From: a virus
Virus record (IMG/VR): IMGVR_UViG_3300028706_000004
Strand: one strand, 5' to 3'
Length of the DNA: 51,259 nt
The notes under the pieces were generated by a model. That model was not told the DNA's origin, searched no databases, and worked only from the letters and a program-made list of their open reading frames with translations. Position numbers and translations under genes: made by a program. Below are positions 35,093 to 51,259 of this stretch, one piece after another (the first letter of the stretch is position 1; each line of letters opens with the position of its first letter).

Positions 35093-38000
35093 TCAATCAA
35101 CCTCTTCGATAGTTAGTCGATACCACCCACTGTTGTTCCCGTTGTATACGGCAGCCTGTACCACATAGTCGCCCACAGCCATGTCCGTGCGGACGATGCG
35201 AGCATCCCACTGATCGCTCACGTTGTCGATCACGGCGACACCATCAGAGCAAGCGCCCCCGGTATCGCAGTAGGTGATCGTCGGGGTTTCGTCTACATCC
35301 ACGGCGTTGCTAGGCGGGGTAGCGCAGGTGCTTCCACAGTCACTTCCCCCATCGTCGTCCGTTTCAATCTGGGCACCAACCGTGACAGCACCAGTGTCCC
35401 CGGAATGATCCCCGGTGTCAGAGTCGTTGTCATTGTTCAGGTAGATGTACGGGTCGCCAGCCTCGTTGCTGGACCCGAACTGGGCGCTAGTCAGGTTCGA
35501 TTCGGCGTCGATACGGACACTGGTTACCTCGTCCAACGAGAACTGAATATGGTCACGGTCGGTGCGGCTAGAGGATTGCACGATGCACCAGTCGCCCATG
35601 CCTCTCCATCCACCCTCAGAGCAGCCTTCCTCGGTGTTCACAGCCTCAGCCGTTGTAGTAGACGCTGATGTGTAGGCGTCGCCAGCGGTAACCGTCGTGG
35701 TTTGAGGACTCCAGCCGCGCACCGTTGAGCAACTCTGCTGAACACCATCTGAGAACGTGCAGGTCGTCATATCCGATCCGGCGCGAGCCACCACGGTTGT
35801 CGTGTCTACATGAGTCGTCGTAACCGTCGTCGCCGTTGTGGTTGCAAGATGCCAGTGACCATCGTTGCTGTTGTGGGTCAAGATTCCGCTCTCAGCGGTT
35901 GTGGTGGCGGTCCCCGTCTGAGCAGTAGTGGTGCTCGTAGAGATCGTCTCGGACAAGGCAGCGTTCGTGGTCGTGTAGGTGATGGTCGGGTAGTAGACCG
36001 CTATCGGGACCACGACCGGGATGTACGCCTCTTGGACTTCTTCGGGGAGGTATTCCTGAGCGACATCTATTGGAACTATCCCTGCCTCAACTTCAAGAGT
36101 GAAACCAGCCCATGTGGTGTAGCCGCCCGGTGGTGCACCCCAATCGTCGTAGTAGGTGGGATCGTTGGCTGCGTCGTAAGCCTCCCAAGTTTCAAAGCCC
36201 CCGGGGGCACTGTCGCAAGCTGAGGTGCCCCTACAGCCTTCATAGGGGTCTACCCACTCCGGTTCCTCTGGTTCCGGCTCTGGTTCTGGCTCTGGCTCTG
36301 GTTCCGGTTCTGGTTCTATTTCTTCAGAAGGCAGCTCCGTTTCATCCATTTGCTCTTCATCCACTTGCGTTTCTGAAGATGTATCTGGGTCGGATTCTGC
36401 GTCTTCGTCACCGGGTTCGAACCATTCGTCCTCCTCTATGGGATCATCTTCAGTATCCCACTCTTCTTCATCGGGAAACTCTTCCCAAAGGGGTTCGTTC
36501 TCTTCGTCGTAAGCAACCCAATCTTCCTCTGTCCAATCCCACGACTCGCTAGGCGATGGACCCCAATCTTCCGGCCACTCCTCTAAGCCCATCTCCTCAA
36601 GGATGAGGGCTTCTTCGTCTTCAGCAGTCCATTCCTCTACTTCTTCTTCAAATTCTTCGACCTCTTCTTCAGTGAGACCTTCAAGCATTTCAAAGAAAGC
36701 CTGTTCTTGCTCTTCGTCATAAGTCACCCAATCCTCTTCGTCCCATGGACCCTCTTCACACTCGTCGCACCATTCAGCATCATCAGGCCAGAACTCTTCT
36801 TGCCAATCGTCCCATTCCTCTTCAGTGTTAAGCTCCCACGACTCTTCTTCTGCTATCTGCTCCTCTTCCCACAAAGAGTGCATCTCATCGTCGTAAGCCT
36901 GCCAATCACCGTCATCCCACAGCGCTGTTTCACTAGGAGAAGGACCCCAATCTTCTGGCCACTCATCAAGACCCTCTTCTTCAAGAATCATGGCTTCTTC
37001 GTCGGCTGCCCACTCTTGGTCGTAGGTGTCCCAGTCGTCCTCAGTCCACTCTGCGGCCTCCGTAGGTGACGGACCCCAGTCTTCGGGCCATTCCTCTACG
37101 CCCAGCTCCTCCAGCAGTGATTCTTCCCACGATGTGGGATCTTCCATCTCTTCTTCCCAGACGGAATCCATTTCCTCGTCGTAGACAATCCAATCCTCTT
37201 CTTCCCAATCGACAGTTTCAGTGGGAGACGGACCTAAGAGTGTTTCGTTCCACTCCTCCAGCCCCATCTCTTCGAGAATCATTTCTTCTTCTAATTCAGC
37301 GTCGTATTCCTGAAATGCAAAATCCTCTTCGTAATATTCTTCTTCGTACTCCTCCCAGAATTCCTCCTCGTCAAGCTCTTCATGCTCCTCGAAGAACACA
37401 ATGCGCTCTTCTTCAACCTCCGCCATGAATGATTCAACTTCTTCGAATAGTTCTTCTACATCGACAGCCTCACCAAAGAGGTCATCCATCAGCTCCTGCT
37501 CATCTTCGAACCATTCGTCTGTGTATTCAACCTCCTCCCACTGTTCGTCCTCCCAATATTCTTCGTCCACGCTAAGGAGGATTTCTACAAAGTCGATCTC
37601 ATCCTCCTCGAACGACTCAGGAGCCTCCCATTCCTCAACCGATTCAATCTCTTCTACATAAGAAGTACCCAGAACCTCTTCAATGCGATCTTCGGCGACT
37701 GCTTGGAAATACTCGGCATCTGAAGCCACCCACGCTTCAACCTCGACCTCCTCCGTGGTGATCTCCCCAGCATCTGCGTCGAACGTAAGTTCGATAACAA
37801 CGGGAACGACAACCGGTTCTGGTTCCGGTTGTGGAGGCAACGTGGTGACTGGCTCGTCTGGTCGAGCTGGAACAGTGACAGTTGGTTCCTCGAACACCTG
37901 TTCGGTAACCCGATAGTCGGTCATATCGACCTCTACCTCAGCCAACACCTCACCCTCATTATCCTGAATAGCAATGTCCAGCGTGTCCCTAACCGGCTCA

Positions 38001-39586
38001 GGTTCAGGAGTCGGAGCGCCGGGCTGTTCGACTTCGGGTTGAGGTTCGGGTTCCGCAGCGAAGGCCACCTCGATTTGCTGACCAGCCTCCAATTCGATCT
38101 CAACTTCAAGGGCATCAACTGCGATAGCGACAGTGGCTTCTTCAATCTCCGCAATTTCAACTGCTTCTTCAGAGAAGCTCAACAATGATTGAACCTCTTC
38201 GGGCTCTCCCTCCTCTTCCGGCTGTTCCCACCGCTCAGGCGTTTCTTCTTCTACGATTACAGCTTCAATCTGAACAGATTTCTCTTCGTTTAAAACCAGC
38301 AAAGAAAACTTCTGTTCGGTTTCTTCTTCTGTCTGTTCCTCTATTGCCTCTTTAATCCTGTCCTGAGTAGAGCTGGGCTTCTCTGTTTCCGGAGTTGGAA
38401 TATCAATCTCTTCAACATCTGCGGAGAATGCCTCCACCCCGGGAGGGAGGAATACCAGCACCGGGTCCGCCGTACTCGGTCCTGAAATCAGGTAACGATA
38501 AGTAGCTCCTTCAATCTCATTGATAAACACGCCGTCGTAGTAGCCCAGCCTGTTACCAGATTCAGTTTCGATTTTGAGAGCCATTTGCTTGTCGCCGGAA
38601 GCGGCAACAGTAAGCATCGTTCCTGATTCTTCCCCATCTTCTTGAGGGCAGAAACTGCATGTGAATGGACCTGACCGAGAACGCATCGGAGTGAGCTCCA
38701 TGGTTCCTGTCCCACCAGACCATGCTTCCGACTGTTCGGTGGGGTTGGTGGCAGCCAATGCATATATCCACTGACCGTCTTTAGATACGTCAATCCAGCG
38801 TTCTTCGTTGGGCCAGTTAGAGTCATAGATATAGATGCGGTAGCCACCGGCCATTTCTTCGACCCGGTAAGGGGTGACGGCGTGGCCCCCCTGTTCGCTG
38901 TAAATACCGATTGTGAAGCCGGTGTGTGGGTTTCCCTTTTCTGCTTCTGAGAAGTCATAAAGAAGAACTTGTGCGAGCTCTGTTGGGGATTTCTCCAGAT
39001 AGGAAGAAGCTTCCTGCTGCACCTCCATAGCAAACTGCGTCACATACCAGTACGCGATCTCGGAGAGGAGTGCTGGGTCTTGCTTAATCAGTTCCGCGAC
39101 AGTTTGAGTATTCTGAAATGTTGCAAGAGTCTCTATGTCACCTGCAAGACGTAAACTCAGAACAGCCAAGCCTTCACATAGCCCACCACGCATTGACTTG
39201 TTGGCCTGTGACATCAACTGCAGAATCACCGGGTACGGCGTACATTTACCGTCAGTTACATCTGAACAGACCTGACTGTCACCATATAGGCGACGTGTCA
39301 TATTGACCGTTAAGTCTGCTGGGGCTTCCCCACCACTGAAGTTCTGAAACGAAAAGGTGTCATCGTTGGTTGTGTAGTTTGGGATGGCATGGTCGGCGAG
39401 GGGCGCTTTTTCTAATACCTCTGGAGCAACGGTCGACGTAGTTGAGATGACCCCATCGGTAGTTGTCGTGACGATTTTAGTAGTCGTTGGGGGGAACAGA
39501 GTGTCTGTTGGAGCAGTCGGTTCCGAACTAGAGCAGCCGGAAAGGACCAGAACGCCAGCCAAGAAGGCAGAGAGAAGCCGTTTCAT
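35093..39586 (-). CDS. large lipoprotein: Cys-His-Asp papain-like domain, acidic Trp-rich repeat stalk, C-terminal PPC-like domain
   Basis: Lipobox LVLSGC; GGLCEG / GGHAV / YDSN; E/W-rich repeats; DPYIYL...DDDGG...GDYVVQA...GWYRLTI. Confidence 0.75.
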   Translation of the reverse strand: MKRLLSAFLAGVLVLSGCSSSEPTAPTDTLFPPTTTKIVTTTTDGVISTTSTVAPEVLEKAPLADHAIPNYTTNDDTFSFQNFSGGEAPADLTVNMTRRLYGDSQVCSDVTDGKCTPYPVILQLMSQANKSMRGGLCEGLAVLSLRLAGDIETLATFQNTQTVAELIKQDPALLSEIAYWYVTQFAMEVQQEASSYLEKSPTELAQVLLYDFSEAEKGNPHTGFTIGIYSEQGGHAVTPYRVEEMAGGYRIYIYDSNWPNEERWIDVSKDGQWIYALAATNPTEQSEAWSGGTGTMELTPMRSRSGPFTCSFCPQEDGEESGTMLTVAASGDKQMALKIETESGNRLGYYDGVFINEIEGATYRYLISGPSTADPVLVFLPPGVEAFSADVEEIDIPTPETEKPSSTQDRIKEAIEEQTEEETEQKFSLLVLNEEKSVQIEAVIVEEETPERWEQPEEEGEPEEVQSLLSFSEEAVEIAEIEEATVAIAVDALEVEIELEAGQQIEVAFAAEPEPQPEVEQPGAPTPEPEPVRDTLDIAIQDNEGEVLAEVEVDMTDYRVTEQVFEEPTVTVPARPDEPVTTLPPQPEPEPVVVPVVIELTFDADAGEITTEEVEVEAWVASDAEYFQAVAEDRIEEVLGTSYVEEIESVEEWEAPESFEEDEIDFVEILLSVDEEYWEDEQWEEVEYTDEWFEDEQELMDDLFGEAVDVEELFEEVESFMAEVEEERIVFFEEHEELDEEEFWEEYEEEYYEEDFAFQEYDAELEEEMILEEMGLEEWNETLLGPSPTETVDWEEEDWIVYDEEMDSVWEEEMEDPTSWEESLLEELGVEEWPEDWGPSPTEAAEWTEDDWDTYDQEWAADEEAMILEEEGLDEWPEDWGPSPSETALWDDGDWQAYDDEMHSLWEEEQIAEEESWELNTEEEWDDWQEEFWPDDAEWCDECEEGPWDEEDWVTYDEEQEQAFFEMLEGLTEEEVEEFEEEVEEWTAEDEEALILEEMGLEEWPEDWGPSPSESWDWTEEDWVAYDEENEPLWEEFPDEEEWDTEDDPIEEDEWFEPGDEDAESDPDTSSETQVDEEQMDETELPSEEIEPEPEPEPEPEPEPEPEEPEWVDPYEGCRGTSACDSAPGGFETWEAYDAANDPTYYDDWGAPPGGYTTWAGFTLEVEAGIVPIDVAQEYLPEEVQEAYIPVVVPIAVYYPTITYTTTNAALSETISTSTTTAQTGTATTTAESGILTHNSNDGHWHLATTTATTVTTTHVDTTTVVARAGSDMTTCTFSDGVQQSCSTVRGWSPQTTTVTAGDAYTSASTTTAEAVNTEEGCSEGGWRGMGDWCIVQSSSRTDRDHIQFSLDEVTSVRIDAESNLTSAQFGSSNEAGDPYIYLNNDNDSDTGDHSGDTGAVTVGAQIETDDDGGSDCGSTCATPPSNAVDVDETPTITYCDTGGACSDGVAVIDNVSDQWDARIVRTDMAVGDYVVQAAVYNGNNSGWYRLTIEEVD
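36500..37290 (-). repeat. coding repeats, about 37 aa x4 plus a partial copy
   Basis: Consensus ILEExGLEEWPEDWGPSPxExxxWxEEDWxxYDEE. Confidence 0.8.
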
Positions 39587-39589
39587 GGC

Positions 39590-40030
39590 TTACCCTCGTT
39601 TACGTTTACTCTGGTACCAGATCAGAAAGCCGATAAAGATAACGATGCAGGCAGCAGCAATAATGACAGTGGCCGACCCCCCGGGGGCTCCACTCATATC
39701 AATGGAAAAGTTTTTGGCTCCGCCGCCGAGCAGGTCGTTCTCAGCCTTTAGTTCTGCTACGGCTTCTTCTAATTGGGCGACTTGATAGGACAGAGCTGCT
39801 TCCTCGTTGGAGTTTTGCCAAAGGAACCCAAAGGCGCCAGAAATGGCGGCTGGAAGTCCAAGGACCCAAGCAATGTTGTCCTTGCACTTTGTGAGTAGCT
39901 TTGTGGCCTTTTTCGCCTGACTCAGAGAAGCCTTTTTCTCGGGCTTCGCAGGGGTAGAGGCGGTTTCGGCCAGTGTTTCTTCAATAACAGCGGCGCTGCG
40001 CTTTAAATACTTTTGGAGGTCCCCATCCAT
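39590..40030 (-). CDS. membrane protein (2 TM with coiled coil between)
   Basis: Two hydrophobic helices; directly upstream of the lipoprotein. Confidence 0.65.
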   Translation of the reverse strand: MDGDLQKYLKRSAAVIEETLAETASTPAKPEKKASLSQAKKATKLLTKCKDNIAWVLGLPAAISGAFGFLWQNSNEEAALSYQVAQLEEAVAELKAENDLLGGGAKNFSIDMSGAPGGSATVIIAAACIVIFIGFLIWYQSKRKRG

Positions 40031-40080: not shown

Positions 40081-40368
40081 CTAGACGACTCTGTTGGGTC
40101 CTTCGAGTTTTCCGACAATATTGATGAAATTTTCAGATAATTTCTTTAGATTCTCATACGGTTTCTTATCCGCCTCAGGGAAATCGTCTATTAGGGAAAC
40201 TCCTTCAACATCGGTTTGCCATAAAACATCAGGTTGTGTGAAATCCATAGCATCAGCATCTAACCCCATACCGAAAGCCAGTTCAAACATGGTCGTTTCA
40301 ACGTCTTTTCTAGCTCGCAGAAGAATCTGACGACGTTCCGCTGTTGTCATTGAATGTGGAATAGCCAT
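40081..40368 (-). CDS. hypothetical protein (possible fibre chaperone)
   Basis: Directly downstream of the Gly-rich fibre gene. Confidence 0.55.
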   Translation of the reverse strand: MAIPHSMTTAERRQILLRARKDVETTMFELAFGMGLDADAMDFTQPDVLWQTDVEGVSLIDDFPEADKKPYENLKKLSENFINIVGKLEGPNRVV

Positions 40369-40394
40369 AATGCATCACCAACTAGATTTTATCA

Positions 40395-41810
40395 TTAGAC
40401 AGCAGCATCAATATGGGTATATGTAGCGCTTGTCAAGGTTATGTTGCTTGTTATTGTCGAAGAAGCCGTGTCTGTGATTAGAACGATGCCACCGAAACGA
40501 CCCAGACCGCCTGTTGTTCCGGTCCCACCAGCACCGCCAGCACCGCCAGCGCCTCCCGGATCTTGGTTTCCTGCAGAGTGGTGAGCCCCATGGGACGGAT
40601 TGGTGTTTCCACCGGTTACCGGGTTGACATTTCCACCCGGATTTACATTGCCACCCGTCGGCGGATTGACATTTCCACCTTCGACTGGGTTGACATTTCC
40701 ACCGTGAGTCGGGTTGACATTTCCGCCGGGATTGGTGTTTCCACCTTCGACTGGGTTGACATTTCCACCGACCGGGGAATGGGTGGGTGGGCCGGGTCCG
40801 TAAGCCGTGTATGGATTTCCGGGAGAGTGGTACCCATTTGTTGGGTGATGGAAGCTCGGGTTGTGCGCTCCGTGTGAAACCGGGTTTCCCGGAGATTCCT
40901 TATGGTGAGACGGATTGACGTTTCCGCCCGTTACTGGGTTGACATTTCCACCCGGGTTGACAGTGCCGCCTTCGACCGGATTGACATTTCCACCGGTTAC
41001 CGGGTTGACATTTCCACCGGTTACTGGATTGACGTTTCCGCCGGGATTAACGTTTCCGCCCGTTACTGGGTTGGTATTTCCACCCCCGGCAGGAGTGTGC
41101 GAACCGGGATTAATCGCTCCCGCATTTCCCGGGTTTCCAGCAGCCCCAGTAGCTCCAGTAGACCCAGCAGACCCAGCTACTCCGGCACTAACAATCGTTC
41201 CAGAACCGCTAATCGTTTTGGCTGCCACTACAACCAAACCTCCGCCAGCGCCTCCAGCGCCACCAGAACCTGTGCCTCCCGTACTTCCGGGGTTTCCCGG
41301 ATTACCCAACGGTGGAGTTCCCGGCGCAGCACCACCTGCGCCTCCCGGACTTCCCCCAGTATCAGAACCGGTATCACCATCGCTGCCAGCTTCAAAACGT
41401 TTAAAACCGTCGGTGGGGTCCCAGTTCCAACCCTGAATAGCTTGCTCTAAGTCCTTCAATATCGACGCAGGAACTTGAGTTGCACCACCTGCGGTAGAAT
41501 CTCCCAAAACGTAGGTTTTAGGGATGCTTCCATCGTCAACACGACCAGTAACCGTTCCGAGCCCAACTGTATGTTGCACAGCAGAAGGCATACCCAAGGT
41601 TCCCGTTATGTCTAAGTCTCCAGTACAAAAAACACGGAATCCATTAGTAAATAGAATTGCACCACTTTGTATAGTGCAGGTCGTGTAGTACATGTCACGA
41701 GTCATTACGACGGTTCCAGTAATAGACGCGGCACCGTCAACGCCCGTTCCATAAATAATGTCGTTGCCGAGACGTTGAACAACGGGTCTGTTATGTCGAA
41801 TGATAGGCAT
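40395..41810 (-). CDS. glycine-rich virion/tail-fibre-like protein with GGNVNP repeat insertion
   Basis: YGTGVDG...MTRDMYY...TNGFRVF...GGAGGGLVVVAAKTISGSG glycine-rich scaffold; 16 GGNxNP repeats. Confidence 0.75.
   Translation of the reverse strand: MPIIRHNRPVVQRLGNDIIYGTGVDGAASITGTVVMTRDMYYTTCTIQSGAILFTNGFRVFCTGDLDITGTLGMPSAVQHTVGLGTVTGRVDDGSIPKTYVLGDSTAGGATQVPASILKDLEQAIQGWNWDPTDGFKRFEAGSDGDTGSDTGGSPGGAGGAAPGTPPLGNPGNPGSTGGTGSGGAGGAGGGLVVVAAKTISGSGTIVSAGVAGSAGSTGATGAAGNPGNAGAINPGSHTPAGGGNTNPVTGGNVNPGGNVNPVTGGNVNPVTGGNVNPVEGGTVNPGGNVNPVTGGNVNPSHHKESPGNPVSHGAHNPSFHHPTNGYHSPGNPYTAYGPGPPTHSPVGGNVNPVEGGNTNPGGNVNPTHGGNVNPVEGGNVNPPTGGNVNPGGNVNPVTGGNTNPSHGAHHSAGNQDPGGAGGAGGAGGTGTTGGLGRFGGIVLITDTASSTITSNITLTSATYTHIDAAV
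40590..41084 (-). repeat. two 60-aa arrays of GG(N/T)(V/T)NP(xx) repeats flanking a His-rich 45-aa spacer
   Basis: Arrays at 41084-40905 and 40769-40590, each with unit lengths 8-6-8-8-8-6-8-8. Confidence 0.9.
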
Positions 41811-42535
41811 TAGTCAACCTCAATGTAGATGGTTGTCCCATCAGTGTGGTTACCTGAACCGCTTCCTTTCGCCGCCGACAATGTCAAGTGTGTTTGGGCG
41901 TTGAACGTAGCTTCGTCATTTGACGAAAAGAAGATAATGGCACCTCCGCCCGCTTGGGCGCCCCCAGTTGCAGAAATCGTGCAAGCTCCTGCTGTGGAGA
42001 TGTATCGTGCTGCAACAATTACTACCCCTCCGCCAACCCCTTGACCAGTTGGACCACCTGCTCCACCCTGCAAATGAGTGGGAGTGGTTGCTGAAGCAGT
42101 AACCGCGTAACCACGAACAGCCTGAGCTGGATATCGCCAGTATGCGGTTCCGCCTTGTGCTGCCGTGGGGGCGGTAGCAGTGCCCCCATCAGCGGAACTA
42201 TCTGTGTTTCCGTTGCCACCGAGGCTGCATGTCGTATTAACTGTGACTGCCGCTCCAGCTTTTAGGGTACCCACAGCGGTTGAACCACCGGGAAGGCCGA
42301 TAACCGACGAAGCTCCCATAGTTAAAACGTTTTTTACAAATAACCGATACCCACCAGTATTTAGTGTGATACCACCATTAACAGTCAAGTTGTAGTAGTA
42401 CATGTCACTGGACATGGTGGCATTAGTAGCTATCGTTGCATCTAAATCTGCGCCTGAGCCATAAACGTCATCCGGGGAATCTAGGAAGCTTGCCAATTTT
42501 CCCGGCGAGTTGACCTTAACCCTGCCCCATGTCAT
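41810..42535 (-). CDS. glycine-rich virion protein, paralogue of 40395..41810 without the repeat insertion
   Basis: YGSGAD...MSSDMYY...TGGYRLF...GGGVVIVAARYI. Confidence 0.75.
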   Translation of the reverse strand: MTWGRVKVNSPGKLASFLDSPDDVYGSGADLDATIATNATMSSDMYYYNLTVNGGITLNTGGYRLFVKNVLTMGASSVIGLPGGSTAVGTLKAGAAVTVNTTCSLGGNGNTDSSADGGTATAPTAAQGGTAYWRYPAQAVRGYAVTASATTPTHLQGGAGGPTGQGVGGGVVIVAARYISTAGACTISATGGAQAGGGAIIFFSSNDEATFNAQTHLTLSAAKGSGSGNHTDGTTIYIEVD

Positions 42536-42876
42536 TAGGTGATCTCAATTCCGCTCACCGTCGCATTAACGCTAGAAGCGTTGCCACATAACATATGCAA
42601 CTCGTCTCCGGTGTTCATAACCATTGACATGTTGAGAAGCGTTGTTTCTTTTTCTGTAAGGGATAAGTCTTTGAATATCTGATGTGTGTCAGCAATGGTG
42701 ACACCGTTTGGCTTCAGTGTGAGGGTTACCGTCTGTGCTGAAGCTGTGATATTTGTCAGGACTATTTGTTTTACAATTGTTGATGTGCCGCCCCCTACTG
42801 TGTATTGGACGCCACCGTATGTACCCGTGTTGATTACAACTGCGGGTCCAGACAACCTTGTTTGTGTCAGTGCCAT
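42535..42876 (-). CDS. small beta-sandwich virion structural protein
   Basis: YTV...TIVKQIVLTN...VMNTGDEL...VNATVSGIEI, recognised from aquatic phage tail regions. Confidence 0.65.
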   Translation of the reverse strand: MALTQTRLSGPAVVINTGTYGGVQYTVGGGTSTIVKQIVLTNITASAQTVTLTLKPNGVTIADTHQIFKDLSLTEKETTLLNMSMVMNTGDELHMLCGNASSVNATVSGIEIT

Positions 42877-42929
42877 AGATTGGGTCCTTCCCGGAAAGCT
42901 GCACTCTTCTACATATTACCAGTCATACC

Positions 42930-43793
42930 CTACAACGTATTGCCCTTTGGGGGGTTTAACTCGCCGAAGATCCAATCGGATAGGCGTTTTTTGAAAGACT
43001 TCTGTTTTCCAGCCACAGGACACACTTCTGGAATCGGCGCATCCTTTTGTTCTCGACGGTAGGCACCACTTCTATCCGCAGGTATGCCGATAGGTGATTG
43101 CATGCCGAGATTTATTAACCATTCAGCTATTTTCGGCTGACCATACATAATATTTTGGTGATTTCGTGGAAATGTAATCATTTGGGCAATAGGCCAGCCC
43201 ATAGGGATCACGAATTCTTTGTCAGTGAAGATATTAATAACCCAATTCATAGTGTGGTAATAATCGGTATTGACAATCCCCGGCATGAGTGACCATTCCC
43301 GTGGTTCCTCCATCCAGCACGGTAATAGCAGTGTTGACCAGCCGGGAGCTGTTTTAATTGTCCACGGATTGACTACTTTGATGTGGTTACTCTCAGGCAG
43401 TCCACGTCCTTCGTTGAATGGACAGCCCGCTCCGCTGGATTCATAAGTAAAAATATCTACAGCGAGACCGTGATTTCTCTCGTCTCCAGCTATGTCCCAG
43501 CGAGCTTCCCATTTCTGTGCGTCTGCCGACGGTCGGAATCTAAGAGGGGCAGGTAATCTCCATGTGCCCCCCAAGGAAATGTAATCAGATGTTCCCTGAC
43601 AGGCTTTAAATCCGCCTCCTGCGTTTCTTCTCCAAGAAGGCCAAACCTTAGAGTTATCCAAGGGGGTTATTTTGGGGTCATAAAATCTGTCGTGTTGTGG
43701 ACTCAAAAGGATGTGACCCGGAGGTATCTCGATATCAGAAGCTAACAAATAGTCGTCGCCGAGAAGATCTTCTCCACGGATTTTGAAGTCCAT
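42930..43793 (-). CDS. DUF6065-like (dUTPase-like beta-clip) protein
   Basis: FKAC...PWTIKTAPGWSTLL...GIVNTD...IPMGWPIAQMITFPR. Confidence 0.6.
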   Translation of the reverse strand: MDFKIRGEDLLGDDYLLASDIEIPPGHILLSPQHDRFYDPKITPLDNSKVWPSWRRNAGGGFKACQGTSDYISLGGTWRLPAPLRFRPSADAQKWEARWDIAGDERNHGLAVDIFTYESSGAGCPFNEGRGLPESNHIKVVNPWTIKTAPGWSTLLLPCWMEEPREWSLMPGIVNTDYYHTMNWVINIFTDKEFVIPMGWPIAQMITFPRNHQNIMYGQPKIAEWLINLGMQSPIGIPADRSGAYRREQKDAPIPEVCPVAGKQKSFKKRLSDWIFGELNPPKGNTL

Positions 43794-43811
43794 ACGAATA
43801 CTTTAGTCTAA

Positions 43812-44507
43812 TTAGGCAGTTTTGACCGCCACAGAAACTCCAAGACCTGAAGCCATGTGGTACAGATTTGCATCTGCTCTATCTGTGAGATTCGAATACA
43901 AATTGACGTAGTCGTGAGCACTGTCGAACTCGAACCACCTACCATGATCGTTTGTACTGGTTAGGATTATTGATCCCCCTACCGGGAGCTGATCAAAGAT
44001 GTTCGTTACGATTTCAAAATTATGGTTTACCTGCGGCATGTGAATCGATGCCATATCGAAAGTCTTAGGAAAACTATTTAATTCGATCGCGCCCATCGTA
44101 ATGGTTTCGTATTCCAATCCAGACACGTCCATATGGCGTTCCATGTAATCCAAGTGCAGATTGTTAACCAAGGTTATGTTGCCTACGCCCAACTTGAGCG
44201 GACAATAGGGAATTCCGATCACAAGCAGTTCAGACGGAGCACTTAAACGAATCAGCATTTCCTGCATGCTCCGCATGTGTGCGTTGACCGCGTTAAAGCT
44301 CGGGGAGTTGGAAGCAACTCGCTCGTAGACGCACAGCTCGTCGTTGTAACCAACGGTCTCCGTGCTTCGATCCATCCCGTGTCCGGTTTCTTCGTTAACT
44401 ATTGCCGTAGCAGAAGCAATTTGTGCGTCAGAATCTAAGTTCGACGTATGGTCAGCTGAGGTGTATTTTTCTGCGACCTTTATCATGTCGATTGCATTCA
44501 GCGCCAT
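43812..44507 (-). CDS. degenerate class I SAM-methyltransferase-like protein
   Basis: PSELLVIG...FDMASI...QLPVGGSIIL strand pattern; SAM-binding Gly loop poorly conserved. Confidence 0.45.
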   Translation of the reverse strand: MALNAIDMIKVAEKYTSADHTSNLDSDAQIASATAIVNEETGHGMDRSTETVGYNDELCVYERVASNSPSFNAVNAHMRSMQEMLIRLSAPSELLVIGIPYCPLKLGVGNITLVNNLHLDYMERHMDVSGLEYETITMGAIELNSFPKTFDMASIHMPQVNHNFEIVTNIFDQLPVGGSIILTSTNDHGRWFEFDSAHDYVNLYSNLTDRADANLYHMASGLGVSVAVKTA

Positions 44508-44782
44508 TATCCGTTCCTAGCTGTCAGAAGGTCACGCTGGTATATGAATTTACGAGCGTTATCAAATTTTCGTTGTCTGGATCTATAAATGGTCCTTTGC
44601 GCCACTGTCCATCCTTCAGGAACATGGGGATCGCCGATACCGGCGTGAGCGGTGGCGATCAACTCTTTGAGGTCAGCATAAGTGATCGACCCAGCAGAGG
44701 TTTCGTCACCCCCAACGGAGGCGATTATGACCCCAAGCGAATTACAGATAGATGTGTAATTGGCGTCTGCATCGTAAGCCAT
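44507..44782 (-). CDS. hypothetical protein
   Basis: RBS GGAGGAGG; coupled to the next gene. Confidence 0.6.
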   Translation of the reverse strand: MAYDADANYTSICNSLGVIIASVGGDETSAGSITYADLKELIATAHAGIGDPHVPEGWTVAQRTIYRSRQRKFDNARKFIYQRDLLTARNG

Positions 44783-44785
44783 TGC

Positions 44786-44929
44786 TTATTCCTCCTCCGG
44801 TGGATTTAAAAGGGGATCATCTATTGTCATAACAGGAGAATCGTACATTGTGCATAACACGATAGAGTCGTCTGGTTGAACATCACGATCTAACGATGAA
44901 TCCCACTTTTCGGGTTTCACATCAGGCAT
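44786..44929 (-). CDS. 47-aa acidic microprotein
   Basis: MPDVKPEKWDSSLDRDVQPDDSIVLCTMYDSPVMTIDDPLLNPPEEE; RBS GGAG. Confidence 0.5.
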   Translation of the reverse strand: MPDVKPEKWDSSLDRDVQPDDSIVLCTMYDSPVMTIDDPLLNPPEEE

Positions 44930-44964
44930 AATAGGTTCTCCAGCGCAGTCCTACTTTCATTGTA

Positions 44965-45756
44965 TCAGTTGTCTTTCTCGACAATTTGGTCTTCAGTCTC
45001 CACACTTTCTACATCTACTTTGAGTGGAGTAGCCATAGGTGCCAGAGATCGACCATGACTCTGTGTGTCTCCCTGAATGTTTTCACATGTAATAAAGCTG
45101 TTGAGAATAAATTTGTCGGAAGATAACGGAGTTAGTCCGAGATGTGGATGCGTCCAAGCTGTAGGAAATACGGCCACACGGCCAGCAACAGCTGAAACGA
45201 TTTGTCTCTGTTCTGGAAACTTTGTGCCACCACCGGATTCCACAGTATTGAGATATATGATAATTCCAAGAACACGGGGTAAATCGTCCCCTGAAGCGTA
45301 CCTTTCCCATGGAGTTGCATCACAATGCTGTCTATACCATCCTCCGGCTTGGTGATAATGCTGCAGACGGAAACCAGTGTCACACAGACCCGGAGCAGTC
45401 CATAGTTCCCTGTATTGCTCCCTGTACTTAGCAATCGCCGTATACATCGCCCGTTGAGCTTGAACTCGCATGGACCCAAATACAGATACCGAATCAAGAT
45501 CTCTGTCCTGTAACCACGCCGGATCGATAGAGGCGTCCATGCTTTTTTTCATATCTGGACGAACACCACCCCAAGTGGGGCCGGGTTCAAACATCACCTC
45601 ATAATGTTGTTTACAAGCATCTAAAAATTCTTGACATAACGACTCTTCAATACTCCCATCAAGAGTAAGTAGGAAATTTCTAGTACCACCGGGAAAATCA
45701 AAAGAAAGAGTCACTTCACTGCTCCAATCTGGGAATGAGTTGTCCACCGAAATCAT
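44965..45756 (-). CDS. prolyl-4-hydroxylase-like 2OG-Fe(II) oxygenase
   Basis: HCD...IIYLNTVESGGGTKF...FPTAWTHPHLG...K. Confidence 0.88.
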   Translation of the reverse strand: MISVDNSFPDWSSEVTLSFDFPGGTRNFLLTLDGSIEESLCQEFLDACKQHYEVMFEPGPTWGGVRPDMKKSMDASIDPAWLQDRDLDSVSVFGSMRVQAQRAMYTAIAKYREQYRELWTAPGLCDTGFRLQHYHQAGGWYRQHCDATPWERYASGDDLPRVLGIIIYLNTVESGGGTKFPEQRQIVSAVAGRVAVFPTAWTHPHLGLTPLSSDKFILNSFITCENIQGDTQSHGRSLAPMATPLKVDVESVETEDQIVEKDN

Positions 45757-47248
45757 CAAAATGCCAGTCGGCACGCTTGTCTGAGTATATTTTGTGGGCG
45801 CGATCAAGGACCACCCTATGCGCCACTTCAAGAGGATTTTCACTAGAGCTTTTGACCTCTTCCAGCATGCTTCTTGCTGGTTGGGTAGATCCGTATGCTT
45901 CGACCCCAACCCTAGCCCCCTCCTTGCTGATCAGACCCTGACCTTGAGCTACATGCCAAAAGTGGGGTATCTGGAAAAGCTCGTAGCCAGTCATGGGTAA
46001 GTCGTGAGCCTCAGGGCCTCTGTGGCTAAACATTTCTATTAAGAAATTGAGTAGCTCGGGCCTTGGCGAATGCTGTTGGTCAATCCACATTGGTGAATCC
46101 TGACGATCTGAAACATAATGCATAGCCACCATCGTTAGAAGATTATCAAACATCGAATCAAAAACCTTGCTGTACCCCTGTTGTGGGGCTGTCGAGTTCG
46201 ACCTGTAGGTGGGCAAGTATGAACAAATCAATCTAGATTGCTCGATAGTCGCAGCTATTGAAGTTGCTTCTAGTGGTTCAATAAAGTTGGACGCCAACCC
46301 TACCGCAACACAGTTGAATTGCCATGAATTTTCTACTTTAAATGGCTTGTACTTGATGATTCGAGCGTCGGTTACTGGCTCATTTATATACTCTTCAACT
46401 TCTTTAGCCGCTCGTTCTTCATCCGTATAGCGAGAAGAGAATACATACCCATGACCCCTTCGTTCATAGGTGGGAATCTCCCAATGCCACCCAGCAGATA
46501 AGGCTTTAGCCTCAGTAAAAGGTTTGATCGTATGGTTTTCTTGCGTTTGAAACACCAAAACAGAGTCACAAGGGAGATATTCTTCATAAGAACTTTGCCA
46601 AATCTCACCCAACTCTTTCAGTATTACTTGGTTAAAACCGCTGGCATCAATAACGAAATCTGTTTCGATGTTTCCTGTAGAAGTAATAACGCTAGTAATG
46701 TCACCCGAGGAAGGGTCTCTTTCAATCCCGCTGACCATAGCGTCAACGAACTTGATACCCATGGTTTCTGCGTGACCAATTAAATATGTATTTAATTTGG
46801 CACTGTCAAAATGAAATTGATTAGTTTGATGCCACGGGTTAGGAGTGTCTGGGACTAGATTGTTTATTAATCCTGCATGGGTAAGTGAAGGGGTCAGCTG
46901 CCTGTCGGAAGAATGAATGTAATTATAAAGACCATTAAATGTACCTGTGTTGGTATATAAAATACGACCAGAAATACTATGAAAATAGTCTGGCGTATGG
47001 TTGGTCCAATCTAAAAATCTAATTCCATATTTGAAGGTAGCCATAGAGTCTCTAATTAAATGAGGTCTATCTATCCCAACACGATCCTCATATGCCGCCC
47101 ATTGTTCCGTGCTGCCTTCGCCCACACCAATAGGCTCGATCTCTTTCGAAGAAACTACCGTGACCTCGAAGTCCGCGAAAGTCGCCTTTATGGTTGTTGC
47201 CGCAATCAGCCCTGCTTGACCAGAGCCCACTATAAGAATGTGTTTCAT
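45716..47248 (-). CDS. flavin-dependent halogenase (tryptophan halogenase family)
   Basis: GSGQAG, IGVGEGS, ATFKYGIRF (catalytic Lys), WHWEIP, FIEPLEATSI. Confidence 0.9.
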   Translation of the reverse strand: MKHILIVGSGQAGLIAATTIKATFADFEVTVVSSKEIEPIGVGEGSTEQWAAYEDRVGIDRPHLIRDSMATFKYGIRFLDWTNHTPDYFHSISGRILYTNTGTFNGLYNYIHSSDRQLTPSLTHAGLINNLVPDTPNPWHQTNQFHFDSAKLNTYLIGHAETMGIKFVDAMVSGIERDPSSGDITSVITSTGNIETDFVIDASGFNQVILKELGEIWQSSYEEYLPCDSVLVFQTQENHTIKPFTEAKALSAGWHWEIPTYERRGHGYVFSSRYTDEERAAKEVEEYINEPVTDARIIKYKPFKVENSWQFNCVAVGLASNFIEPLEATSIAATIEQSRLICSYLPTYRSNSTAPQQGYSKVFDSMFDNLLTMVAMHYVSDRQDSPMWIDQQHSPRPELLNFLIEMFSHRGPEAHDLPMTGYELFQIPHFWHVAQGQGLISKEGARVGVEAYGSTQPARSMLEEVKSSSENPLEVAHRVVLDRAHKIYSDKRADWHFDDFGGQLIPRLEQ

Positions 47249-47815
47249 TTATACAGGCCACATGTATTTGAAGTATAGAAACGCTTCATCATTTACTGAT
47301 CTAGCTCTTAAATCAAATGGAAACAGACACGGCAAAATAAGCACATCTCCAGCAAACATGTCATATTCAATATCGTGTGCTTCTAAACGAATCGTAACAT
47401 CGGAAAGAGCAAACATCGCTGCCGTCGTATAAGAATTGGTAGGTGGATCGAGGGTCCCAGAAAATTGGTTGCCATTTTTCTCTATCCATATGAACTGAGG
47501 GCCACTATCTCTTAAGTAAAAAGTTTCGTGATACAGAGAGTAACTATTCAAGCAGTTTTCTACTATTTCGTTCATTTCATAGAAAGCTTCTTTCATTTCC
47601 AGTAAACGGTCAGCAACCGCAGTCAACACCGGACTCAAAGGGGTGTAGTGACTATTGCAATGCTCCAAATCGTTGCTGAATCCCCCAAAAGATGGGAGAT
47701 ACGACCATGTTCGTGCAGTCTCTTCTTTGTAGCCTTCTATAACGGCTTTAGCATCATGGCCGCAGTGAAATATTTCTACAGTAGGAATGATTGTTGTGAC
47801 ATCTTTTATCGTCAT
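47249..47815 (-). CDS. 2OG-Fe(II)-oxygenase-like protein lacking iron ligands
   Basis: AGDVLILPCLFPF matches GNIVLFPSSYAYAH of its neighbour, but HxD and the distal His are absent. Confidence 0.5.
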   Translation of the reverse strand: MTIKDVTTIIPTVEIFHCGHDAKAVIEGYKEETARTWSYLPSFGGFSNDLEHCNSHYTPLSPVLTAVADRLLEMKEAFYEMNEIVENCLNSYSLYHETFYLRDSGPQFIWIEKNGNQFSGTLDPPTNSYTTAAMFALSDVTIRLEAHDIEYDMFAGDVLILPCLFPFDLRARSVNDEAFLYFKYMWPV

Positions 47816-48474
47816 GTAAAAAATGCCGCCATACTGTATTTGACTTCTCCGCTGTATCGTCCAGCTGGTTCAGAAGCATGAGCATAAGCATATGAAGAAG
47901 GAAAGAGAACGATGTTTCCTTCAATGCAATCAGTTGCGACATTTTGGAATGGGAAAAAAGTTCTACCACCATCCTTAACGGTATTTAAATAACAAACAAC
48001 CGACAACAGTCTGGGGTCATCAGTACCATGATCGGCGTGAACCTTATATTGTCCGCCATGCCCGTATTTATTGATAACCCAACCCGAATGATCTTGAAGT
48101 TTTAAATTATTCTTGATTCGATAATCCCAAACAGCCCGCTCAACATGGTATAAAACCGGGTACGCAGCCTTCTGTAGCTCCGTATAGGTTTCAATCTCAG
48201 CTTCGGGATCGAACACACTCAAATGGTCCGTCAATACTTGAGAACGAGAGTCCCTATACAGGCCGATTCGTTGATTGTCTCCACGACCAACCTTTGCGGC
48301 GTTCCAACGGGTTATGTCTCCGTCTTTTTCAATAGCATCAACTAACGCTTGACCGTCAAACGGATAATGGTAAACGTAGAGAAACGGAGCGATTTCGAGA
48401 TGAGGAAATGGATCATCCTCCAATGAGGTGCGAGCAAGGTGGGGATTTGGTATCCCCTTTGGAAATTTCACCAC
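47812..48474 (-). CDS. prolyl-4-hydroxylase-like 2OG-Fe(II) oxygenase
   Basis: HAD...VCYLN...GGRTFF...FPSSYAYAH...KYS. Confidence 0.9.
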   Translation of the reverse strand: MVKFPKGIPNPHLARTSLEDDPFPHLEIAPFLYVYHYPFDGQALVDAIEKDGDITRWNAAKVGRGDNQRIGLYRDSRSQVLTDHLSVFDPEAEIETYTELQKAAYPVLYHVERAVWDYRIKNNLKLQDHSGWVINKYGHGGQYKVHADHGTDDPRLLSVVCYLNTVKDGGRTFFPFQNVATDCIEGNIVLFPSSYAYAHASEPAGRYSGEVKYSMAAFFT

Positions 48475-48890
48475 GGATTCACCGTGATTTTCTCAGACGC
48501 TATATCTCCGTCTTTGTCATAAACTCTGACCTCATATTCTCCCGGACTGGGAAAACGAATCCTCCAACCCTTGTAATGAGGATCGCCCGACATTAGTGCT
48601 CCGACCTCCGTGGTTCCCTGAGGTCCGTCATAAGCCAGACATACATTGCCTACAAGCGTGAATTCGTCTACATAGTTACACGCAAGGGTTTGGTAAGGTC
48701 TAAGGAATGAGTCAGAGATCTTAAAATGCTGTTCAATTGGGATATTTAATATCTGAACTTTATCCCTGTCGAAGTCAAGCGCTTCCGTTGCTTGACTCTC
48801 TCCAGTTTGAACATGAATACCCCACGGTAGAGCCAACTCCATAGCTTCCTCGACCAGATCGTCGGAGGGGCAATAGCAGATCCGTTCCAT
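48468..48890 (-). CDS. hypothetical protein with Ig-like C-terminus
   Basis: FPSPGEYEVRVYD...EKITV. Confidence 0.55.
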   Translation of the reverse strand: MERICYCPSDDLVEEAMELALPWGIHVQTGESQATEALDFDRDKVQILNIPIEQHFKISDSFLRPYQTLACNYVDEFTLVGNVCLAYDGPQGTTEVGALMSGDPHYKGWRIRFPSPGEYEVRVYDKDGDIASEKITVNPW

Positions 48891-48893
48891 TGT

Positions 48894-49094
48894 TTATTCC
48901 TCTACGGAATCGTCAGTTACGAGCTCCACGTCTTCAATGGCTGCCGCTGGTGGACCGTCAGGAGCCGCTGCCACCTGTTGCTGTTGCATTTGCTTAATAG
49001 CTGTACGGAGTACCGCATTATCTATAGATAATCGCTTTACTTGGTCAGCCAAATCGTCAATGACACCTTGTGGAGAAACCGCATCGTTTTGCAT
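48894..49094 (-). CDS. small coiled-coil protein
   Basis: IDDLADQVKRLSIDNAVLRTAIKQMQ. Confidence 0.65.
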   Translation of the reverse strand: MQNDAVSPQGVIDDLADQVKRLSIDNAVLRTAIKQMQQQQVAAAPDGPPAAAIEDVELVTDDSVEE

Positions 49095-49344
49095 GCCTAG
49101 ACCTTACCATGAACGTGAGGTCTTCCCCGTCGGGAGTTAGGTTTAAAAAGCGGGTTGGGGATGACTCGATTTGTTCTGGAGTAAAGGTGTACCCGCCTCT
49201 ATTCACATAGTTGCCATCATCGTTAATTGTGTAATCGCTTGGCTCACATTCCCTGCGCAACGACATCCAATTATCTAAAACATCTGGATCTACGTTAAAA
49301 ACGTCCGGGAACTCGACAATCCCTCCGTGATGAACTACCTGCAT
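49057..49344 (-). pseudogene. probable truncated N-terminal part of a 2OG-Fe(II) oxygenase
   Basis: GGIVEFPDVF...YVNRGGYTF resembles an oxygenase N-terminus; no HxD; runs out of frame into the next gene near 49110. Confidence 0.45.
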
Positions 49345-49985
49345 ATTCTTTCTCCCCAGCCTTCGGGCATATAGTTAGCTTTAGCGGACTCTTCTTTAAA
49401 TTCTCTAGCTTGCACTCCCGAAGGTAAGACAATCGGGACAATAGAAGCTAACGGATCGTTGAGGAACAGGTCTGAGACAGACTCTGCATCATCGCCACTT
49501 AGCCACATGAAGCGTCTCAAATCGCCCATCTCGTGTGACAAGGGGTACCCGTAGATACCACACTCAACGTAGCTGTTGAGCAAGGTGGCGTTTTCTCGAA
49601 AGTCCTCCCAGTTGCTCGGGTGAACCCAATTGCAGTCAACATAAATACCTGAAAAATCAACTTCTATGGCTGCGTCCATCGTTGGGTATGACTCAGCTCT
49701 AGGATAAATGCCTTCTTCTGTGACCATTGTTTGCTTTTCTTGGTCCCACACGGCACTTTCTCCGATGATGACGCCGCCAAACTGGGAGACAGAAAACACA
49801 ACATCTGCTTCTTCGAATACTCGATCTGGGGTTTCAACCTCTCTTGTCCCCACTATGCGAGCTCGTTCTTGGGTTAATTCAGAACGATCCTTTGTGGCCG
49901 ACAACACATCATGACCGGCTCGAAGTAACGAATCGGCAATGGTGACTCCCATGGACCCTGTGTGGAGTATTCCTATTGTTGCCAT
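49335..49985 (-). CDS. NAD(P)-binding Rossmann protein (6PGD/beta-hydroxyacid dehydrogenase N-domain)
   Basis: IGILHTGSMGVTIADSL...ADVVFS...YVDCN...YVECGIYG. Confidence 0.75.
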   Translation of the reverse strand: MATIGILHTGSMGVTIADSLLRAGHDVLSATKDRSELTQERARIVGTREVETPDRVFEEADVVFSVSQFGGVIIGESAVWDQEKQTMVTEEGIYPRAESYPTMDAAIEVDFSGIYVDCNWVHPSNWEDFRENATLLNSYVECGIYGYPLSHEMGDLRRFMWLSGDDAESVSDLFLNDPLASIVPIVLPSGVQAREFKEESAKANYMPEGWGERICR

Positions 49986-50578
49986 AGGTCGCCACTCAGC
50001 ACGCCTTGGCGTGTTTCTCGTTGTATTGCGATGCCCGTGGGCTCATAGGGATATAGGTTACCAGCTATAGATACACGGTCTCTGTCAGGAAATTGCCTTG
50101 TTGTCATGTGTTGGTAATAGGCCCCAAAGATGACTAATAGGCCCGGGCGGAGTGGGATGCTTTCAAGAACTTCAAGACGATTGCAGTACATGATGTGAAT
50201 CACCATGTCAGCATCATCTTCTTGACAGAGGGGGTAATAGCAGAAGGAGAAGTGTTCCTCTGGATTCAGCCAAGTATTCGACCAGTGGGAATGGGCCATA
50301 ACGGACTGTCCGGGTCCTGTGTACACACCCCAGATGGCGTCTATGTAATACGGTCGACCCAATAGCTCGCAGGCAGCGCTTGTGATTTGCTGCCGCAAGT
50401 CCATAGTGATATTTCCGATTGGTAGATCAAGGTCCTCATGTGGCACATGCTTTTCAACAACAAGGTTATGGATAGCTTTAGCATCACGGCTATCCAACTC
50501 GCATGTCCAATAACCAATATCAACAATTGAATGTCGTTGAACATTCCGTATCGGCGGAGGTGGTTCTCTATCTTGCAT
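49973..50578 (-). CDS. TIGR02466-like 2OG-Fe(II) oxygenase
   Basis: IWGV...AHSH...SFCYYP...GLLVIFGAYYQH...RVSIAGN. Confidence 0.8.
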   Translation of the reverse strand: MQDREPPPPIRNVQRHSIVDIGYWTCELDSRDAKAIHNLVVEKHVPHEDLDLPIGNITMDLRQQITSAACELLGRPYYIDAIWGVYTGPGQSVMAHSHWSNTWLNPEEHFSFCYYPLCQEDDADMVIHIMYCNRLEVLESIPLRPGLLVIFGAYYQHMTTRQFPDRDRVSIAGNLYPYEPTGIAIQRETRQGVLSGDLWQQ

Positions 50579-50903
50579 CGGGGAGTTTGTAACCTTCTGG
50601 CATATAAATATTTGTTGTTATGTCTGCCGCTTCTGGGTGTTCAAGCGGGTCTATAACAGGCTCGTTAAACGCGCCATTTGGCGTTCCGTGGCAATACCAC
50701 CCTACATGCGAATACCTTGACCCTCCGGAAACCTCAGAAACAGAATGTGCCGCCATGTAATTTGCAGGGAATAAAACAATGTCGCCCTTGCTTGGCTTGT
50801 ATTCAATACCCAGATATTCCCATGACACCAGCCCCCCTGTGAAGTTGGTTCCGTCTAGCTCTGCTTCGGTCTCAACATGGTCGTTAAGGCATGCCAGTTG
50901 CCC
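50568..50903 (-). pseudogene. C-terminal half of a 2OG-Fe(II) oxygenase
   Basis: LNDHV...NFTGG...GDIVLFPANYMAAHSV...GSRYS present; in-frame TAG at 50904-50906; HxD motif missing. Confidence 0.6.
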
Positions 50904-50966
50904 CTAATGAAATCTTCCGAAGATTCGAAGACGTTCAACGGGTGTTGTTCTACCATCCACGAATGA

Positions 50967-51168
50967 TCAATATTTAGGATATTTCCTTGCGACGGTGGGC
51001 GCGACCTGATTGATGCCAACCCTGTTGTTCCCAGAGTCAACCTTCAAGACATCAGGAGCGAGAGAGACGCCATAGGCGATCCACTTCTCACTATCCCACT
51101 GCCACTGCTTGCCGCTTACAGTGTGGATGTCACCCGTTTGACGGGCTGTTTGGAAAGTCAATAGCCAT
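50967..51168 (-). pseudogene. frameshifted, truncated tail-fibre gene
   Basis: MAIDFPNSPSNG then a frame change to DIHTVSGKQWQWDSEKW...NNRVGINQVAPT; extra base in CCC 51133-51135; ends abruptly. Confidence 0.65.
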
Positions 51169-51259
51169 TATTCGATCTCCTCTTTACGATACTGCATCAA
51201 CTTGGCGTAGTAGGCCATACGATTAGCGATACACGGTCTGCCGTAGACGGTAAATCTCG
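51168..51259 (-). CDS. hypothetical protein, 5'-partial
   Basis: ...RFTVYGRPCIANRMAYYAKLMQYRKEEIE stop, overlapping the next ATG (TAATG). Confidence 0.5.
   Translation of the reverse strand, partial: RFTVYGRPCIANRMAYYAKLMQYRKEEIE

Follow-up and report, generated by a model that had tools for sequence, protein, structure and literature searches.

A flavin-dependent halogenase and prolyl 4-hydroxylase-like oxygenases linked to Gly-rich proteins of the tail-fibre region in a phage group without a cultured member

The 51,259-nucleotide stretch of viral DNA analyzed here (hereafter the window) corresponds to bases 3505-54763, minus strand, of the 80,231-bp IMG/VR virus record IMGVR_UViG_3300028706_000004, which is estimated to be 54% complete. 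It carries a module in which a flavin-dependent halogenase, 2-oxoglutarate (2OG)-Fe(II) oxygenases resembling prolyl 4-hydroxylases (P4Hs), and a dUTPase-fold protein are encoded beside a trio of genes, two of which specify Gly-rich proteins. We estimate at about 45% the probability that these enzymes tailor a hypervariable insert of the larger Gly-rich protein, which is encoded in the fibre region, and that one oxygenase, OG_B, is specialised for Asn-Pro repeats in this insert. An earlier note on this DNA, made from the letters and their open reading frames (ORFs), had proposed that a cassette of such enzymes decorates the virion fibre. Its observation proved to be largely right, and its interpretation is partly supported. 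As it had described, the ORF list shows one dense run of minus-strand genes; the run spans positions 40081-51259 and extends beyond the window end. The genes of the module are the following, where HMM stands for hidden Markov model, and pLDDT and pTM for the predicted local distance difference test and the predicted template modelling score of AlphaFold2 (AF2) models.

40395..41810, minus strand: large Gly-rich protein, 471 aa, a paralogue of gly241 (alignment A1)
41810..42535, minus strand: gly241, Gly-rich, with a predicted beta-solenoid fold (AF2 pLDDT 84.5, pTM 0.83)
42535..42876, minus strand: o113, a small protein, first gene of the trio (phrog_1276, phrog_20100; 77/86 loci)
42930..43793, minus strand: o287, core protein of predicted dUTPase fold with an invariant Cys65 (AF2 pLDDT 80.8; Foldseek probability 1.0)
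44965..45714, minus strand: OG_B, second P4H-like oxygenase, H195xD197 (PF13640, 32.8 bits against a cutoff of 27)
45716..47248, minus strand: flavin-dependent (Trp-type) halogenase, core gene (PF04820, 1e-89, 301.9 bits against a cutoff of 21)
47812..48474, minus strand: OG_A, core P4H-like 2OG-Fe(II) oxygenase (PF13640, 42.4 bits against a cutoff of 27)
48468..48890, minus strand: o140, a small protein (HMM matches in most loci; 47/86 by tblastn)

Homologues of gly241 number more than 130 in metagenomes and at least 303 in IMG/VR. Megablast of the region and tblastn of o287 and gly241 against deposited phages gave no match, and the phage group is without a cultured member. A search for related loci with the single halogenase sequence found nothing, and searches with gly241 and with alignments succeeded. 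HMMs derived from the window and from six relatives were used to scan 86 related loci, and gene presence was also determined by tblastn. In 77 of these loci, a distance of 2.5-6.3 kb separates the halogenase gene from gly241. The nine loci without a halogenase gene all end no more than 3.8 kb downstream of gly241 and are therefore cut too short to tell. OG_A, which was found in 77/86 loci, stood alongside the halogenase in 77 of 77. In addition, o287 accompanied the halogenase in 74 of these 77 loci, the other three (L030, L070, and L078) ending within the halogenase gene. Five gene orders were observed, with the enzymes upstream of the trio as in the window, downstream in three internal orders, or downstream on the opposite strand, and sequence identity across the loci drops to approximately 40% for gly241 and 37% for the halogenase. 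The gene-presence pattern indicates that the conserved core consists of o113, gly241, the large Gly-rich protein, OG_A, the halogenase, and o287, with o140 as a provisional member; o140 accompanies OG_A in most relatives, and its gene overlaps the OG_A start by 7 nt. Many loci carry, 0.8-2.5 kb upstream of the trio, a fibre-like gene in the same orientation, and portal and capsid genes are found upstream in L012 and L014. These arrangements indicate that the module belongs to the tail-fibre region. The view of the earlier note that the enzymes are not sporadic auxiliary metabolic genes is thus borne out, because OG_A and the halogenase occur near the trio in every informative locus despite the rearranged order and strand.

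The assignment of a flavin-dependent halogenase holds as well. In an alignment to BrvH and by inspection, its flavin-binding GxGxxG motif, WxWxIP motif, and catalytic Lys and Glu are intact (GSGQAG at position 8, Lys73 in ATFKYGI, WHWEIP at 254, and FIEPLE at 322), and the motifs were kept in 50-57 of 57 homologues; judged by these motifs, the enzyme appears to be active. In a phmmer search of the PDB, the nearest solved halogenases were BrvH (1e-52) and a Xanthomonas enzyme. VirX1 of cyanophage Syn10 (PDB 6QGM) is likewise a phage-encoded Trp_halogenase with GxGxxG, Lys, and WxWxIP motifs, but it is only a distant relative of the window halogenase (7e-33). VirX1 is in use as a biocatalyst.

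H146, D148, H199, and K212 of OG_A, which make up the HxD...H triad and the 2OG-binding Lys, were invariant in 32 family members, and the best PDB matches were the P4Hs of Bacillus anthracis and Chlamydomonas. OG_B was found in approximately half of the related loci. Its HxD...H triad is intact, and its PDB matches are also P4Hs. The ORF listed for OG_B (44965-45909) starts inside the halogenase gene; the relatives align from a GTG codon at 45714, which is the likely true start. Since the triad is kept and the nearest solved relatives are peptidyl-prolyl 4-hydroxylases, OG_A and OG_B both appear to be active. Their similarity to these structures (5HV0/3ITQ of B. anthracis and 2JIG of Chlamydomonas) is low, with E values of 1e-4 to 7e-3. 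The solved P4Hs hydroxylate Pro in Gly/Pro-rich repeat proteins, whose repeats are collagen-like Gly-X-Y or polyproline, whereas those encoded here are GGNVNP or His-rich. The P4H of chlorella virus PBCV-1 and the collagen hydroxylase L230 of Mimivirus are precedents for viruses that hydroxylate their own repeat proteins.

The o113, gly241, and large Gly-rich genes are joined by overlapping stop and start codons. The gly241 model was weakly similar to adhesins and tailspikes, the best matches being beta-helix adhesins with Z scores up to 6.2, and a Foldseek search of the PDB with this model gave no match at E ≤0.001. The proteins and their gene arrangement resemble those of the gp38-type adhesins of T4 and S16, in that Gly-rich motifs alternate with hypervariable segments, the genes follow the fibre genes, and a chaperone gene is near. 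On the other hand, no sequence match to the gp38-type proteins exists, gly241 has a predicted beta-solenoid fold, and the structural likeness reaches a VIA Z of only 3.9 (with 6F45; 3.8 with 9V85).

The large Gly-rich protein consists of a gly241-like scaffold and an insert of approximately 240 residues, in which two GGNVNP arrays flank a His-rich spacer; 16 GG[NT][VT]NP units were counted. More than 20 Asn-Pro dipeptides had been noticed in the product of 40395-41810. The actual number is 23, compared with approximately 4 expected from the composition, and the DNA of the gene contains diverged repeats with periods of 24, 42, and 66. Among 61 distinct orthologues of this protein, the numbers of Asn-Pro, Pro-Pro, and Trp ranged from 0 to 25, 0 to 18, and 0 to 12, respectively. 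The inserts are mostly His-rich (median 13% His in 26 delimited inserts), with Tyr, Asn, and Gly. In the two closest relatives, GGNVNP is replaced by GDPP/GNPPHT-type or GN(A/P)DHH-type units. The insert is hypervariable, and its GGNVNP arrays are lineage-specific. According to the earlier note, occurrence of the same cluster in relatives whose fibres lack the repeats would speak against its interpretation. This was found in part: relatives with 0-4 Asn-Pro dipeptides retain the core enzymes. Since the core enzymes remain even in loci devoid of Asn-Pro, this dipeptide cannot be their conserved target, and a function of the whole cassette specific to Asn-Pro was rejected. A conserved Trp as the target of the halogenase was also rejected, no Trp being conserved.

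The co-variation of oxygenases with the fibre repeats, a check that had been suggested in the earlier note, was examined here and gave a positive trend, in which OG_B goes with Asn-Pro-rich inserts. The large Gly-rich protein had a median of 14 Asn-Pro dipeptides (range 7-25) in loci with both OG_A and OG_B compared with a median of 2 in loci without OG_B (Mann-Whitney p 3e-8, uncorrected for phylogeny). In the gly241 tree, the presence of OG_B changes at least six times, which gives six independent pairs. In most random pairings, all six pairs were richer in Asn-Pro on the OG_B side, the sign test reaching 0.03 at best. L070, L078, and L087 are apparent exceptions; these loci are cut off and were left out of the tree. 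The trend is suggestive of an action of OG_B on the Asn-Pro repeats, and it is the first co-variation of an enzyme and a candidate substrate at the sequence level.

The product of 42930-43793 had been called DUF6065-like. This likeness is weak: Pfam DUF6065 was matched by one of 34 members of the o287 family (E 0.0044), one distant relative scored 19.5 bits against a cutoff of 26.6, and the fold is that of a dUTPase. The top 50 Foldseek matches of the o287 model were dUTPases or dCTP deaminases (E 6e-5). Instead of the catalytic Asp of dUTPase motif 3 (GxID), the family has His or Asn (PGVVHTDYYH; in the window, GIVNTDYYH), and motif 5, the C-terminal P-loop-like motif, is absent from alignment A3. 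The same alignment shows that the family has invariant residues of its own, among them Cys65. A profile search with o287 retrieved 2,614 representatives; the alignment of distant members (A4) was too diverse for a pattern scan, and a closer subset (A5) was used.

In all 80 further viral loci examined (L094-L173), an o287-like gene is followed directly by an overlapping gene for an OG_A-type oxygenase. The halogenase was present in only 3 of these 80 loci, and the O113 HMM matched 11 of them. In L164, a representative annotated with PHROGs, the o287/oxygenase pair is surrounded by genes for the tail, the tail fibre, and virion structure, an o113-like gene is near, and the 22 longest of these loci have an L164-like gene order as judged by gene size. 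The coupling of the o287 gene to an oxygenase gene is a new observation. A translationally coupled pair of a dUTPase-fold protein (phrog_7084) and a P4H-like oxygenase (phrog_61), in this order, was seen in at least 589 viral contigs, followed by a protein labelled "ferrochelatase" by PHROGs (phrog_2954) and a 715-aa virion structural protein. Among cultured viruses, o287 homologues are almost confined to haloarchaeal tailed viruses, and one cyanophage record also matched. The homologue in Halorubrum virus HSTV-2 (gene 40) is located beside the genes for thymidylate synthase and DNA polymerase and not beside fibre genes. The context of a distant relative, P0143, consists of contigs of 1-2 kb only. 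Prediction of a complex of OG_A and o287 returned a score of 0.00, which gives no verdict either way.

In the tailoring proposal, o113, gly241, and the larger paralogue would be co-translated candidate fibre-tip or adhesin proteins, and OG_A with o140, the halogenase, and the dUTPase-fold protein would modify the insert post-translationally. The oxygenases would hydroxylate residues of the insert, and the halogenase would halogenate electron-rich side chains, for example, those of Tyr, His, or Trp. In the Asn-Pro-rich lineages, the extra oxygenase OG_B is present and is the best candidate for an (Asn-)Pro hydroxylase. The linkage, the tail-fibre context, the apparent activity of the enzymes, and the co-variation speak for this proposal, as does a wider pattern: the o287/oxygenase pairs among tail-fibre and virion-structural genes, the corresponding gene order in cyanophage Syn9, and VirX1, which is described as having an active site that is large and open, with no natural substrate known (PMC8407142). 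Gene content, intact catalytic motifs, linkage kept through rearrangements, and the co-variation of OG_B with Asn-Pro are observations; the virion status of the Gly-rich proteins, their role as substrates, and the chemistry are inferred. A more extended version, in which hydroxylation and halogenation harden, tune, or diversify the receptor-binding fibre tips, o287 serves as a new accessory subunit of the oxygenase, and the enzyme set co-evolves with the insert, as OG_B would with the Asn-Pro repeats, is possible and decidedly tentative. In that version, the viral flavin-dependent halogenases would have their first natural protein substrate, and host-range variation would gain a new layer.

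Among the auxiliary genes of aquatic phages that lack an explanation, those for halogenases and 2OG oxygenases are some of the commonest. In this phage group, the system is minimal, with a single halogenase, one or two oxygenases, and a single dUTPase-fold protein tied to three candidate substrate genes, and the fibre linkage together with the tracking of Asn-Pro by OG_B provides a testable guess at the target of the viral enzymes. If the tailoring proposal is true, phage adsorption and host range would depend in part on post-translational chemistry, and protein-acting halogenases and hydroxylases would become available for biotechnology.

Several points weigh against the tailoring proposal. 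To our knowledge, there is no precedent for an enzyme of this family that halogenates Tyr or His in a protein. BrvH and VirX1, the closest solved halogenases, act on free indole and other small aromatics in vitro, and the orthologue comparison revealed no conserved Trp in the Gly-rich proteins that could serve a Trp halogenase. The Gly-rich proteins are putative virion parts, assigned to the virion by where their genes lie and by a weak likeness in fold (Z up to 6.2). The linkage of the enzymes to the trio could partly reflect the common descent of one phage group. As for the co-variation, only three of the six pairs are on well-supported branches, and L091, with 17 Asn-Pro dipeptides and no OG_B, is a real exception. 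Furthermore, tailoring does not explain the dUTPase-fold protein, whose haloarchaeal-virus homologue neighbours thymidylate synthase and DNA polymerase genes.

A cluster of this type has been described in cyanophage Syn9, where a neighbourhood of ten dioxygenases, two Trp halogenases, and a protein of dUTPase fold that has a conserved Cys was read as synthesizing halogenated secondary metabolites or small molecules (Iyer et al. 2010, PMC2938197). The Syn9/Syn10-type cluster (gp41-gp54) resembles the window in its halogenase, several classical 2OG-Fe(II) dioxygenases, and the dUTPase-fold Cys protein. The block also follows tail-fibre and Gly-rich genes, as in the window; the order in Syn9 is fibre genes gp32-34, Gly-rich gp36, gp38, and gp39, halogenases gp41 and gp42, gp43, and the dioxygenases. 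Syn9 gp43 matched the O287 HMM (2e-19), and gp41 and gp42 matched the HAL HMM. In contrast, the gly241 and o113 HMMs found no match in Syn9, whereas the window module is paired with the beta-solenoid Gly-rich proteins. The module is also compact, with one halogenase and one or two core oxygenases, compared with the two halogenases and ten dioxygenases of Syn9, and it belongs to a phage group with an HK97-type head, Syn9 being T4-like. Pfam scans of the run revealed no JmjC/cupin family corresponding to the JmjC/MINA-type member Syn9 gp49; remote homology was not examined further. The cluster type is already known; its occurrence in a non-T4 phage group, in a form that is minimal and strictly fibre-linked, is new.

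The interpretation given for Syn9 can be extended to the window: the enzymes would make a small halogenated and hydroxylated metabolite, derived from an amino acid or indole, during infection, and the fibre neighbourhood would be a tolerated insertion site. The substrates of BrvH and VirX1 are in keeping with such a product, the Rossmann reductase and additional oxygenases of the window look like parts of a pathway, and the other families of the module, including the trio and o287, are absent from the halogenase loci of the cyanomyoviruses P-SSM2 and S-H38. However, Pfam scans of the run and of the neighbours in six relatives detected no peptide synthetase, precursor, transporter, or scaffold-building gene. 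The enzymes are, moreover, core to the fibre module in all 77 informative loci through its rearrangements, which is unexpected for a metabolic moron, and OG_B tracks the sequence of the neighbouring protein. We regard a metabolite as an unlikely product of the module.

The earlier note had also called the cassette RiPP-like (RiPP, a peptide made by ribosomes and modified after its translation). MibH, SrpI, and ChlH belong to the same superfamily as the window halogenase and have ribosomally made polypeptide substrates, in which they act on Trp in short leader-guided or cyclised peptides. Unlike those systems, the window has no leader and no conserved Trp, and the candidate substrates are 241-471 aa long. 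Pfam and PHROG scans of the run found no protease, RiPP recognition element, or transporter family, the candidates being 113-471 aa with o113 included. The RiPP label was rejected because no leader, recognition element, or protease was found and the candidate substrates are long.

Quite unlikely in our view, the trio may be a mere neighbour of enzymes that modify another target, such as the upstream tail fibre, the 1497-aa protein encoded next to the module, a component of the host envelope, or a host translation factor. The protein substrates of P4H-type enzymes are diverse, the module is surrounded by other large fibre-like genes, and the o287/oxygenase pair occurs elsewhere beside different virion proteins with no gly241 homologues. 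The neighbouring large proteins, however, vary between relatives, whereas the trio is constant, and the trend between OG_B and Asn-Pro points to the large Gly-rich protein.

A role for the 2OG-dependent enzymes of cyanomyoviruses in 2OG drawdown or DNA repair was proposed earlier (Sullivan et al. 2010, PMC3037559; a similar view in PMC2984593), and in these genome papers the role of the halogenase is given as unknown or antibiotic. That the genes of the window have no functional link to the trio, and serve such 2OG drawdown, nucleic-acid repair, or nucleotide or DNA chemistry with the dUTPase-fold protein, fits the fold of o287 and the neighbours of its halovirus homologue but is improbable, because the motif 3 Asp is replaced and no motif 5 was seen, the oxygenases are of the P4H type and not AlkB or TET/JBP, and the module keeps a constant position within fibre operons rather than replication modules.

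The remaining genes of the run are as follows.

40081..40368, minus strand: o95, final gene of the run (ORF list)
43812..44507, minus strand: o231, clade-specific (tblastn matches in 12 loci)
44507..44782, minus strand: o91, a small protein of the window's clade only (tblastn matches in 7 loci)
47249..47815, minus strand: o188, an OG_A paralogue lacking the HxD metal ligands (no HxD/E motif)
48894..49094, minus strand: o66, a small protein (synteny with L005, L006, and L009)
49335..49985, minus strand: NAD(P)-binding Rossmann protein, 216 aa (F420_oxidored, PF03807, 6.8e-6)
49973..50578, minus strand: 2OG_Oxy_5-like oxygenase, 201 aa, HSH...H...R pattern (PF13759 E 1e-3, below cutoff; phrog_81, 8e-13)
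50568..50828, minus strand: C-terminal fragment of a P4H-type oxygenase, 86 aa (PF13640 27.7 bits, profile positions 60-97 only)
51197..51259, minus strand: 3' part of a gene reaching to 51484, tail-fibre assembly chaperone, Phage_tail_APC, 95 aa (Pfam PF16778, 7e-21)

Three intact oxygenases and two oxygenase fragments had been counted in the earlier note. OG_A and OG_B exceed the PF13640 cutoff; the third oxygenase, the 2OG_Oxy_5-like protein, is a weak assignment, which falls short of the PF13759 cutoff and is backed by phrog_81, and its sequence gave no match in the PDB. One fragment, 50568-50828, was recovered, and the second has no profile match. The tblastn matches of the fragment in 23 loci all lie within full-length oxygenase genes of the relatives, and the cut-down gene is specific to this window. 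The ligand-less oxygenase homologue described earlier is o188: the O188 HMM cross-matches OG_A ORFs, BLAST to the OG_A of L009 gave an E value of 0.006, and o188 is confined to the clade of the window. The Rossmann protein also holds up through its F420_oxidored match; a sequence search of the PDB returned a single weak match, and the protein could be a putative flavin reductase. Neither the Rossmann protein nor the 2OG_Oxy_5-like oxygenase was found in any of the 86 related loci. The genes for the Rossmann reductase, the third oxygenase, and the fragment were added recently and are peculiar to this phage, and the run is accordingly composite and not the single cassette that had been supposed. 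A methyltransferase had been suggested for o231. No Pfam or NCBIfam family and no methyltransferase profile matched it, and the resemblance by eye is loose.

In transcription order, the genes upstream of the run encode a tail fibre (497 aa or more), three small paralogues, and the 95-aa chaperone. What had been taken for a tail-fibre remnant at 51168 is in fact the C-terminal part of this intact chaperone gene, which is cut by the window edge. The three tandem paralogues (189, 212, and 190 aa; L002:1500-3272, corresponding approximately to window positions 51492-53264) lie between the tail-fibre and chaperone genes. They had no family match, and tblastn in the 86 related loci gave one weak match (p189, L023). 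In the close relatives L005, L006, and L009, o66 is the first gene of the operon, and the genes on its 5' side are on the opposite strand. At the other end, a terminator scan detected a terminator-like hairpin at 40064-40052 after o95. A scan for sigma-70 promoters found fewer sites than in shuffled sequence and is thus uninformative on operon starts.

Directly 3' of the module, the minus-strand gene at 35093-39586 encodes the 1497-aa protein, which is 71-79% identical to proteins of five relatives. No PHROG family matched it, and it probably serves as a further fibre protein or in host recognition. A protein of 146 aa that has a hydrophobic segment at its C-terminal end (39590-40030, minus strand; approximately 90% identity in relatives) and an endolysin with a PG_binding_1-type C-terminus (34215-34976, minus strand), encoded after the fibre region, may form a lysis cassette. 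Single-base differences between the window and the stored genome record were noted at positions 3442, 3453, 13778, and 18288. A further intact 2OG oxygenase, of the PKHD/YbiX type (31652-32203, minus strand; NCBIfam PRK05467, 1.7e-14; phrog_61, 2e-25), is encoded outside the cluster, 8 kb downstream of the run and close to the endolysin gene. At the corresponding place, L009 carries TauD and another 2OG gene.

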